Positions 20,068 to 21,017 of a stretch of DNA of 24,000 nt are shown piece by piece (position 1 is the stretch's first letter; each line of letters begins with the position of its first letter). The notes below the pieces were generated by a model that was not told where the DNA came from, did not search any database, and saw only the letters and a list, made by a program, of their open reading frames with translations. The position numbers were made by a program, and so were the translations under genes. The DNA lies in the NCBI GenBank assembly GCA_002298145.1, contig DBMP01000015.1, positions 276,702-300,701 of the forward strand, in the 5' to 3' direction. This DNA is from Spartobacteria bacterium UBA695. Lineage in GTDB: Bacteria > Verrucomicrobiota > Verrucomicrobiia > Chthoniobacterales > Chthoniobacteraceae.

Positions 20068-20116
20068 AAATGGTGCGCGATACAGGGTTCGAACCTGTGA
20101 CCCCTACCGTGTCAAG
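20068..20116. repeat. 49-bp exact direct repeat = displaced 3' half of tRNA-Val (att-like site, distal copy)
   Basis: AAATGGTGCGCGATACAGGGTTCGAACCTGTGACCCCTACCGTGTCAAG is identical to 20940-20988. It covers the tRNA from the CCA end through the T-arm to the anticodon loop. 10 of the next 15 nt also match the tRNA, then similarity ends. Confidence 0.85.
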
Positions 20117-20154
20117 TTCGTACTCAATCGCATTTTACAGAGGAGTTTTTCGCC

Positions 20155-20179
20155 TGTGCTAAAAAGTGCTGTGCTAAAT
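20155..20179 (+). repeat. Two copies of TGTGCTAAA (20155-20163, 20170-20178) just inside the distal repeat
   Basis: Read directly: cgccTGTGCTAAAaagtgcTGTGCTAAAtaaacg. They have the same orientation as the pair at 20833-20876. Confidence 0.6.
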
Positions 20180-20298
20180 AAACGTTCTTTCCCTGCGGTT
20201 TCCCCCTCCTCAATTCGCACGGGTCGAAAAAGAAACGGTTGACGGTAACTGCTGCCCTTCTCAGAATTCCCGCCCATGTCAAAAACGAAAGTTGTGGT

Positions 20299-20790
20299 AT
20301 GAGTCGCAGACAACGACAATTCTTCGTTGGGTTGCTGTTTTTATTTGTTTCCGCCGCTTTCGGCTTCCATGAGTTGACCAAGCAGAAAGTGAAAGATTCT
20401 AGCGGTCTTTCTGTGGTCAGCGGCCAGATGAGTTCATATTCCTTCAAGGCCGGTTCGAGGGGGCATGTTTATTATTATATTCACCTCGTTGGGTATAAGG
20501 CCACATTTCAGATTCCCGCTGATTTTTTGGATTCTTTTTCACAAGATCGTTTTCAGTCGGATTTGAAGATTGGCGATTCCATTTCGATCTCAATTCCGAA
20601 GGGCAACGAAAACAGTCTGAGCGCAGATAAGCGGTTATTTATCTTTTCCGTTCAAACAAAAGAGGCGACTTACCTCGATGAGCACGATGCCCTCAGGATA
20701 TACAACAGCAATTTTCCAACGTGGGCGTCTATTGCGTTTTTCCTGTCTGGATCGGGTTTGATATTTTTGAGACCTACGCATACGCCATAA
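20299..20790 (+). CDS. Small two-TM membrane protein (163 aa), unknown function (DUF3592-like topology)
   Basis: I start at the internal ATG at 20299: MSRRQRQFFVGLLFLFVSAAFGF (TM1), then a beta-rich segment of about 110 aa, then PTWASIAFFLSGSGLIFL (TM2). Low G+C. It is the sole cargo between the att-like repeats. Confidence 0.6.
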   Translation: MSRRQRQFFVGLLFLFVSAAFGFHELTKQKVKDSSGLSVVSGQMSSYSFKAGSRGHVYYYIHLVGYKATFQIPADFLDSFSQDRFQSDLKIGDSISISIPKGNENSLSADKRLFIFSVQTKEATYLDEHDALRIYNSNFPTWASIAFFLSGSGLIFLRPTHTP

Positions 20791-20832
20791 AAATGGTGCT
20801 GCAGGCCAGCCGATGATCTGCGCTTAATTCGC

Positions 20833-20876
20833 TGTGCTAAACTCATCGGCTTCCCAGAGTAAATGGGTGTGCTAAA
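20833..20876 (+). repeat. Two copies of TGTGCTAAA (20833-20841, 20868-20876) just inside the tRNA-proximal repeat
   Basis: Read directly: cgcTGTGCTAAActcatcgg...aaatgggTGTGCTAAAtaggg. I did not see this 9-mer elsewhere in the window. Confidence 0.6.
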
Positions 20877-20939
20877 TAGGGAAACGGAGCTTTACGCAAT
20901 GCGGCCTCCCGCTCACGCAAGGCCCTCGGAATCAACAAG

Positions 20940-20988
20940 AAATGGTGCGCGATACAGGGTTCGAACCTGTGACCCCTACCGTGTCAAG
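20940..20988. repeat. 49-bp direct repeat, tRNA-proximal copy (3 nt downstream of the tRNA plus its 3' 46 nt)
   Basis: Identical to 20068-20116. Confidence 0.85.
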
Positions 20989-21017
20989 GTAGTGCTCTAC
21001 CGCTGAGCTAACCGCGC
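20943..21017 (-). tRNA. tRNA-Val (anticodon GAC), CCA encoded
   Basis: The reverse complement is GCGCGGT-TA-GCTC-AGCGGTA-GAGC-A-CTACC-TTGACAC-GGTAG-GGGTC-ACAGG-TTCGAAC-CCTGT-ATCGCGC-ACCA. This folds into a 75-nt cloverleaf with a 7-bp acceptor stem (one G-U), a GTTCGAA T-loop and the anticodon loop TT-GAC-AC. Confidence 0.93.

Follow-up and report, generated by a model that had tools for sequence, protein, structure and literature searches.

The stretch of DNA considered here (the window) comprises 24,000 nucleotides of Spartobacteria bacterium UBA695 (Chthoniobacteraceae; contig DBMP01000015.1, positions 276,702 to 300,701), in which a tRNA-Val(GAC) gene is followed by a short insert and, beyond it, by an exact second copy of the 3' half of the tRNA. 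Comparison with related bacteria indicates that this structure is very probably the product of integrase-mediated integration, in tandem with an older element (E1). The insert, which comprises two attachment-site (att) arms and a single gene, is read here as a non-autonomous cassette that resembles the cis-mobilizable elements (CIMEs) and would have been moved in trans; from the sequence evidence, we assign this reading a probability of about 0.5. The evidence that carries it is a sister element from a related uncultured bacterium (contig L305), in which the same arms, at the same tRNA, appear to hold a different, captured chromosomal gene. The parts of the locus that bear on integration are the following.

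20943-21017, minus strand: tRNA-Val(GAC), intact, the integration target (ARAGORN; Rfam RF00005, 68.5 bits)
20940-20988, no strand: proximal 49-nt block, an attL-type junction; 3' half supplied by the element to complete the tRNA, with 3 further nt (repeat identity)
20068-20116, no strand: distal 49-nt block, an attR-type junction; displaced native tRNA 3' half (repeat identity; G009-type site when joined to 20989 onward)
20053-20067, no strand: native downstream flank of the tRNA, moved along with the displaced 3' half (like flanks in relatives G005, G009 and G017 and on L305)

The two blocks were identical at 49 of 49 positions, in direct orientation, and ARAGORN and Rfam agreed on the tRNA, in confirmation of the exact duplication claimed in an earlier note on this DNA. 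The 45-nt core pattern of the block occurred at these 2 places only in the window (0 expected from 100 shuffles), and no third att copy was found in the window or the genome. Each block takes in 3 nt beyond the encoded CCA, that CCA, the acceptor arm, the T arm and the anticodon loop of the tRNA. Among the 46 tRNAs identified by ARAGORN in the whole genome (a 4.11-Mb assembly of 30 contigs), Val-GAC, Val-TAC and Val-CAC were represented by one gene each. The bracketed insert (20117-20939) measured 823 bp, was present as a single copy in the assembly and was, as the earlier note had also stated, low in G+C; windowed values were 46.5% for the insert, 51% for the tract left of the distal copy and 64.5% for the flank right of the tRNA, compared with 60.5% for the genome.

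The native copy was identified from an empty site made in silico by joining window positions 20031-20116 to 20989-21040. The joined sequence aligned over 104 nt with the uninterrupted tRNA-Val of G009, a genome of the same genus, through the flank, the whole tRNA and the upstream region, whereas DNA left of the proximal copy (20940-20988) gave no alignment with G009. It follows that the native 3' half of the tRNA is the displaced, distal copy and that the proximal one arrived with the insert, in agreement with the general model of islands in tRNA genes (tDNA; PMC4383910). The type of flank found at 20053-20067 was also present in G005 (13 of 16 positions matched the flank of the intact tRNA), in G017 and on L305. 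The insert was not found in 41 relatives, 400 order-level genomes or 150 genomes of the family; it is absent from all other genomes searched. The G009-type empty site, this absence, the integrase-bearing elements that occupy the same tRNA in relatives (below) and the failure of a tandem-tRNA origin (also below) bear out the earlier proposal of a tyrosine integrase acting at an att site of the anticodon-loop type. Larger integrase-bearing elements with the same arms were not found in the genomes and collections searched.

Both recombination products, i.e., the completed tRNA and the displaced 3' half, are shown by comparison of sequences. As reconstructed, the attP of a circular element recombined with the segment of tRNA-Val(GAC) from anticodon loop to 3' end in a reaction catalyzed by a tyrosine integrase; the 49-bp tRNA-like core of the element itself now completes the tRNA gene at 20940-20988, and the native 3' half was pushed, together with its flank, 872 bp downstream to 20053-20116. 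A tandem duplication of tRNA-Val, with the distal copy as its relic and the 823 bp as ordinary intergenic DNA, might account for the similarity noted past the identity block, where 10 of 15 nt still match the tRNA (binomial p ~8e-4), as correctly counted in the earlier note. This similarity extended no farther than 15 nt past the block, with 2 matches only among the 14 nt that come next, so that whole-length similarity is lacking and the succession of 49/49, 10/15 and 2/14 is that of a junction rather than of uniform decay. The flank left of the distal copy is moreover the native downstream flank of the tRNA, and the interior, which has a low G+C content and was not found in relatives, is provided with integrase-associated sites; duplication is accordingly most improbable and was rejected. 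Features of miniature inverted-repeat transposable elements (MITEs) or insertion sequences (IS) were likewise absent, the ends of the insert being devoid of terminal inverted repeats and the duplication consisting of 49 nt of tRNA, not of a short target duplication.

Within the insert, the following features were recognized.

20117-20294, plus strand: distal arm, with tRNA-like 15 nt beside the core, two TGTGCTAAA sites and a promoter-like site
20155-20163 and 20170-20178, plus strand: distal-arm TGTGCTAAA sites, inside 20131-20181, which is identical to the sister element
20239-20267, plus strand: promoter-like TTGACG-17-CAGAAT, facing the cargo gene
20299-20790, plus strand: cargo open reading frame (ORF) P0002, 163 aa, helices at both ends, the only credible ORF of the insert
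20814-20939, plus strand: proximal arm with two TGTGCTAAA sites, on the strand opposite to the tRNA
20833-20841 and 20868-20876, plus strand: proximal-arm TGTGCTAAA sites, ending 102 and 67 nt from the tRNA 3' end

The mini-element would accordingly be built of two att arms with four TGTGCTAAA sites, a promoter-like site borne on one arm and one cargo gene. The 9-mer occurred four times in the window, each time inside the insert and on the plus strand (0.05 expected), and 12 times in the whole genome. Directly after the stop codon of the cargo gene, positions 20792-20800 are the same as the first 9 nt of the att block (the tRNA 3' end plus 3 nt); a deletion in a former tandem could have left this match as a trace of a third att copy, and cargo might be swapped by such a route, but chance would also account for it (~0.25 expected). 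In addition, a 14-nt inverted repeat (13 of 14 positions) was noted at 20036-20049 and 20903-20916, i.e., 19-37 nt left of each att copy and in opposite orientations, with about one such match expected by chance in the region scanned.

The sister element was found, among the matches listed, in a scan of metagenomes for two sites 24-28 nt apart. In the orientation of the window, the 1534 bp of L305 comprise an unrelated left flank, a flank of the native type, a distal tRNA copy, a distal arm, an ORF, a proximal arm, tRNA-Val(GAC) and a related upstream flank. The tRNA was identical to that of the window at 75 of 75 positions, and the distal copy of its 3' half had one mismatch to it. Between the two elements, the arms were identical at 51 of 51 positions in 20131-20181, a block that covers both distal sites and their surroundings, at 18 of 19 in the -35 block of the promoter and at 28 of 29 and 26 of 28 around the proximal sites. 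These blocks stood out from arms that were 62-76% identical by column in a gap-tolerant alignment (76% for the proximal arm), and a run of 51 matches was improbable at a mean identity of ~78% (0.78^51 x ~300 starts, ~1e-3 by hand calculation). In contrast with the arms, the ~520 nt between them were unrelated (alignment score -60 vs -63 +/- 9 for shuffles), as were the left flanks of the two elements. The L305 ORF encodes a protein of 141 aa with a hydrophobic, signal-like N-terminus, for which 17 homologues were found; all eight whose contigs were looked up lay in ordinary chromosomal contexts, and the seven with readable DNA, similar at 79-80% of nucleotides but only within the gene, had neither arms nor tRNA. 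The L305 element, too, contained no integrase remnant. Thus, two integrase-less elements with the same arms hold different captured genes, and the arms behave as a reusable cassette frame.

An integrase family that might act on this frame was indicated by the TGTGCTAAA sites. These were sought in 185,579 species genomes, with figures taken from the matches listed and therefore lower bounds; many of the matches listed were chance ones in low-G+C genomes. At a minimum of 15 Verrucomicrobiota loci, the 3' end of a tRNA (Val-GAC, Pro-CGG or Pro-GGG) was followed after 70-105 nt by 2-4 sites on the opposite strand and then, close by, by a tyrosine integrase gene of the G001/G006/L061 family; in the five loci inspected, 3-10 nt separated the start codon of this gene from the site nearest to it. 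In G006, a genome of the same genus, tRNA-Val(GAC), sites and integrase appeared in exactly this layout. In 400 order genomes, the doublet pattern gave five other matches, compared with six for a reversed control, and four of the five abutted a tRNA 3' end. The proximal sites of the insert agree in strand and distance range with those of the integrase-bearing elements, and 42 nt beyond them, where intact elements have the integrase start, lies the stop codon of the convergent cargo ORF. Second att copies of the intact integrase-bearing elements (class A) were not found in the fragmentary contigs of metagenome-assembled genomes (MAGs). In the intact elements the sites occupy the interval between tRNA and integrase start codon, and we infer that a Verrucomicrobial integrase family of the G006/G001/L061 type binds them, as arm-type or autoregulatory sites. 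An integrase of this type, encoded by a helper element outside the present assembly, may have moved the mini-element in trans.

In a second layout, the doublet lay on the tRNA-sense strand and no integrase was present in the stretches examined. Doublets directly downstream of tRNA-Val, tRNA-Pro and tRNA-Ala were noted in G343, G077, G088 and L103, with no integrase found nearby. On L061, a 61.7-kb viral contig from IMG/VR, five TTTAGCACA sites, a full tRNA-Val(TAC) and an integrase gene follow one another at 180-1607, so that a tRNA-like core lies between sites and integrase. The TGTGCTAAA doublet also occurred on at least 8 contigs of the Chitinophagaceae MAG SOY_65_metabat_221 (L097, L123, L142, L146, L147, L149, L171 and L187), where it is probably an unrelated repeat family.

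In both mini-elements, the cargo gene is preceded by the promoter-like site and the 51-nt block, an arrangement that would also suit an immobile, domesticated insert kept for its cargo, in which the arm blocks are a promoter/operator set bound by a host regulator. Against this reading, the proximal blocks follow the cargo gene instead of preceding it, and in many genera, with different neighboring genes, the 9-mer is associated with integrase genes and the 3' ends of tRNAs. The cargo also differs between the two elements, which makes one common regulatory need unlikely, and domestication is an improbable explanation of the insert.

A serious rival of the cassette, although the less probable of the two, is an origin of the insert as a dead stump, i.e., as immobile debris of a full-size integrase element that integrated and then lost all but one gene and its two ends by internal deletion. 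L305 would then go back to that ancient insertion or to a deletion that occurred in parallel, and the blocks conserved in both would serve expression of the cargo or have arisen by chance. Decay is common at this tRNA: on L318 (reverse complement, ~1340-1534), a pair of sites spaced by 26 nt directly adjoins tRNA-Val and 12 codons of an integrase N-terminus are left, so that a plain stump is seen, and E1, the neighbor of the insert, is itself a deletion remnant. (A gene for a small zinc-ribbon membrane protein follows on L318.) In neither mini-element was such a remnant found, tblastn of the insert with seven integrases giving E > 0.1 in all cases. Moreover, the 18-20 nt inside the proximal sites are conserved in both mini-elements and are not an integrase start, whereas in the five intact elements inspected the integrase start codon is 3-10 nt away from the sites. 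Also difficult to reconcile with a stump are the two different single genes between the same arm boundaries, the 51/51 block amid ~78%-identical arms, the unrelated left flanks and the lack of the element in other members of the genus that were searched; each of these observations favors the cassette. The earlier note had left the choice between a stump and a miniature element mobilized in trans. The sister element shifts the odds toward the latter without settling the choice.

Several observations weigh against the cassette, and some of them also speak for a stump. No G006-type integrase, i.e., no cognate integrase, was found in the assembly, which is 91% complete; ten tyrosine-recombinase matches were noted in this genome, none of the G006/L061 family (best 24-25% identity). 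Only two mini-elements were recovered, among the matches listed, and no further member, parent or helper with these arms was found in the 150 family and 400 order genomes, in phage and plasmid collections (where the arm search gave tRNA-Val-like matches only) or in IMG/VR (no matches). Outside the conserved blocks, the arms have diverged about as much as the host flank, and vertical descent from one old insertion is therefore possible. The five intact integrase-bearing elements have exact site pairs on the integrase side only, which makes the distal pair of the insert atypical, and the integrase, rather than another regulator, is the presumed binder of the sites. Finally, the only close copy of the cargo gene (L030, described below) differs evenly over codon positions (6/6/8), so that purifying selection on the cargo is not demonstrated. 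A sequence that agrees at 20 of 21 positions with the first proximal site and the adjoining flank, at C2:308098-308118 of the same assembly (G000), was considered and is probably due to chance (BLAST E 0.17); it sits in a 150-aa ORF of an island by tRNA-Arg(ACG) that carries a G009-type integrase.

The content of the insert agreed with the earlier note's description of one small protein with two transmembrane segments and no integrase. The mini-element has one gene and is without integrase or excisionase, and the two terminal helices of P0002 look transmembrane. In an AlphaFold2 model (mean predicted local distance difference test score, pLDDT, 54), long helices at the N- and C-termini were the sole confident regions. 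P0002 matched no Pfam, PHROG or NCBIfam family, and only 3 homologues (P0003-P0005), none of them between such arms, were found in 5.8 billion proteins. L030, a 520-bp ENA contig, contains a fragment 93% identical to window 20384-20672, within the cargo gene, between two unrelated flanks; it looks like a decaying or chimeric copy of the cargo.

E1, an older Rep-HNH-integrase element, survives in decayed form to the left of the distal copy and forms a tandem with the mini-element.

19916-20036, minus strand: integrase pseudogene remnant of E1, catalytic C-terminal region, in two frames (tblastn; DNA homology to G009 4927-5079)
19270-19523, plus strand: Rep pseudogene remnant of E1 (PF23343-type replication initiator), in two frames (tblastn; colinear DNA homology)
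19609-19929, plus strand: orphan ORF P0001, 106 aa, inside the low-G+C E1 remnant, coding status doubtful

The first of these corresponds to approximately residues 306-356 of the G009 integrase (tblastn E 2e-8; 1e-7 for G017) and the second to residues 102-205 of the G009 Rep (tblastn E 9e-10), the gene for which matches Pfam PF23343; no protein family was found for P0001. Both pseudogenes, which lie outside the bracket, had been overlooked in the integrase-less picture of the earlier note. In G009, genes for a zeta-toxin, HTH_17, Rep, HNH and integrase are followed by a 128-nt spacer and tRNA-Val, and the window is colinear with this order. Compared with the intact G009 copy, E1 is short of 1029 nt, comprising codons 1-305 of the integrase and the greater part of the spacer, in place of which there are 16 nt. 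Since the Rep remnant up to 19427 is common to the window and to G007, E1 predates the split of the host and G007 species. The low-G+C tract left of the distal copy is thus what an earlier occupant has left behind, and the locus is one of tandem accretion. On L305 (reverse complement), also left of the distal copy, a weak match to the C-terminus of a G006-type integrase (E 0.02) and two other short direct doublets, GGTTGGTAA and AAGGGCACC, were noted at 24-179 and ~330-430; these traces may be another decayed neighbor, parallel to that in the window.

Integrase-bearing elements were present in the same tRNA-Val in G007, G017, G009, G001 and G006, with repeats of 32 to 49 nt, and in the last three of these genomes the integrase gene is directly beside the tRNA. 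The element of G007, the closest relative (~92% identity in the flank), measures 4.9 kb (L022:12733-17771), encodes a Rep protein (PF23343) and a tyrosine integrase, and has a bounding repeat of 32 nt only, which stops at the T arm; thus, a different integrase family uses another sublocation of tRNA-Val. An ISL3 transposase adjoins this element. That of G017 (L024:2946-11414) measures 8.4 kb, with an integrase, a helix-turn-helix (HTH) protein, a capsid-prohead-protease fusion and a 47-49 nt repeat, and looks like a phage satellite. TTGCC-type repeats were noted in its distal arm and in the partial tRNA-Val copy of G013; a further partial copy was found in G037. The order of genes 3' of tRNA-Val differed in every genome compared. 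The tRNA-Val region of G007 is rearranged, beside IS-like repeats: on L023, homologues of window 18150-19427 adjoin homologues of DNA ~7.7 kb upstream of the window start (G000 C8:265406-269025), and ~25.8 kb are missing there, namely the sugar-degradation and pseudopilin genes of the window, creD and the 7.7 kb upstream of the window.

Islands linked to tRNA genes are usually read as integrase-bearing elements and their debris. It is tentatively proposed, at a little below even odds, that Verrucomicrobia of soil and freshwater (Chthoniobacteraceae) harbor sub-kilobase, integrase-less att-arm cassettes, i.e., split attP-like frames that have conserved docking sites for an integrase and a promoter-like site of their own, capture single chromosomal genes and are inserted into tRNA-Val in trans by the tyrosine integrase of a helper element. 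If frames of less than 1 kb do carry captured genes in this way, island finders that demand an integrase miss a route of gene flow, partial tRNA copies separated from the gene by tiny intervals deserve annotation as elements, and the TGTGCTAAA motif offers a handle for mapping the att arms of a little-studied integrase family across Verrucomicrobiota. Even if the insert were only a stump, the locus would clearly illustrate how elements accrete in tandem and decay at a single tRNA.

Such cassettes would be the tRNA-island counterpart of integron cassettes or of MITEs. Integron cassettes likewise combine one gene with a recombination site, are mobilized in trans by a tyrosine recombinase encoded elsewhere and carry interchangeable cargo; their recombination site is a folded attC, they insert at attI, and they usually lack a promoter. 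In contrast, the window element has split attP-like arms, a promoter-like site and a tRNA target, and its ends are direct tRNA-derived repeats with direct 9-mer sites, with neither the imperfect inverted repeat of an attC site nor insertion at attI. Arm-type sites are also a property of lambda-type attP, and the integrase of satellite P4 is reported to autoregulate via sites near its own start. The likeness to lambda-type attP consists of direct repeats of a short motif that flank the core in one orientation and, in the intact relatives, of sites that overlap the 5' region of the integrase; the difference is that these relatives have exact pairs on one side only, and the sites here are predicted ones.

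With the tDNA islands of Islander, the locus shares a regenerated tRNA and a displaced 3' fragment in direct orientation, an att site of the anticodon-centered 'A' type (sublocation classes of Williams 2002) and tandem arrays at one tDNA (PMC4383910). Islander requires an integrase gene for each island (PMC4383910), whereas the insert has none and is far below the usual size of islands. In the tycheposons of Prochlorococcus (bioRxiv 10.1101/2020.12.28.424599), repeated integration at one tRNA similarly moves the older elements inward, earlier events can be recognized by broken integrase genes and additional partial tRNAs, and the cargo consists of niche genes. Unlike the insert, these elements carry their own integrase and replication module, and no integrase-less, single-gene tycheposon with conserved arms was encountered in the passages of the preprint that were searched.

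The concept that comes closest is the CIME with tandem accretion. Islands of Streptococcus thermophilus related to ICESt1 provided the first description (Pavlovic 2004 and Bellanger 2011, cited in PMC5704250), and a definition and a three-step model have been given (PMC5704250). As in CIMEs, the insert is flanked by attL and attR and is without genes for integration or transfer, a second element stands beside it in tandem, both being at the 3' end of one target gene, and its movement would be expected to depend, as is thought for CIMEs, on a recombinase from another element (PMC5704250). CIMEs are kilobases long and are understood as decayed integrative and conjugative (ICE) or integrative and mobilizable (IME) elements that move in cis with a functional neighbor (PMC5704250), as opposed to 0.8 kb and one gene for the window element. 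Its neighbor E1 is itself dead, being reduced to pseudogene fragments in an assembly without a G006-type integrase. No ICE or IME parent with these arms was found in the genomes and collections searched, and the sister element, likewise integrase-less, has the same arms around another gene. Thus, the single-gene size, the dead neighbor and the sister with swapped cargo suggest a maintained cassette frame and not simple decay of the kind described for CIMEs. Size, single-gene content and a sister with exchanged cargo are what is new in comparison with the CIMEs described, and the mini-element may be a gene cassette rather than debris.

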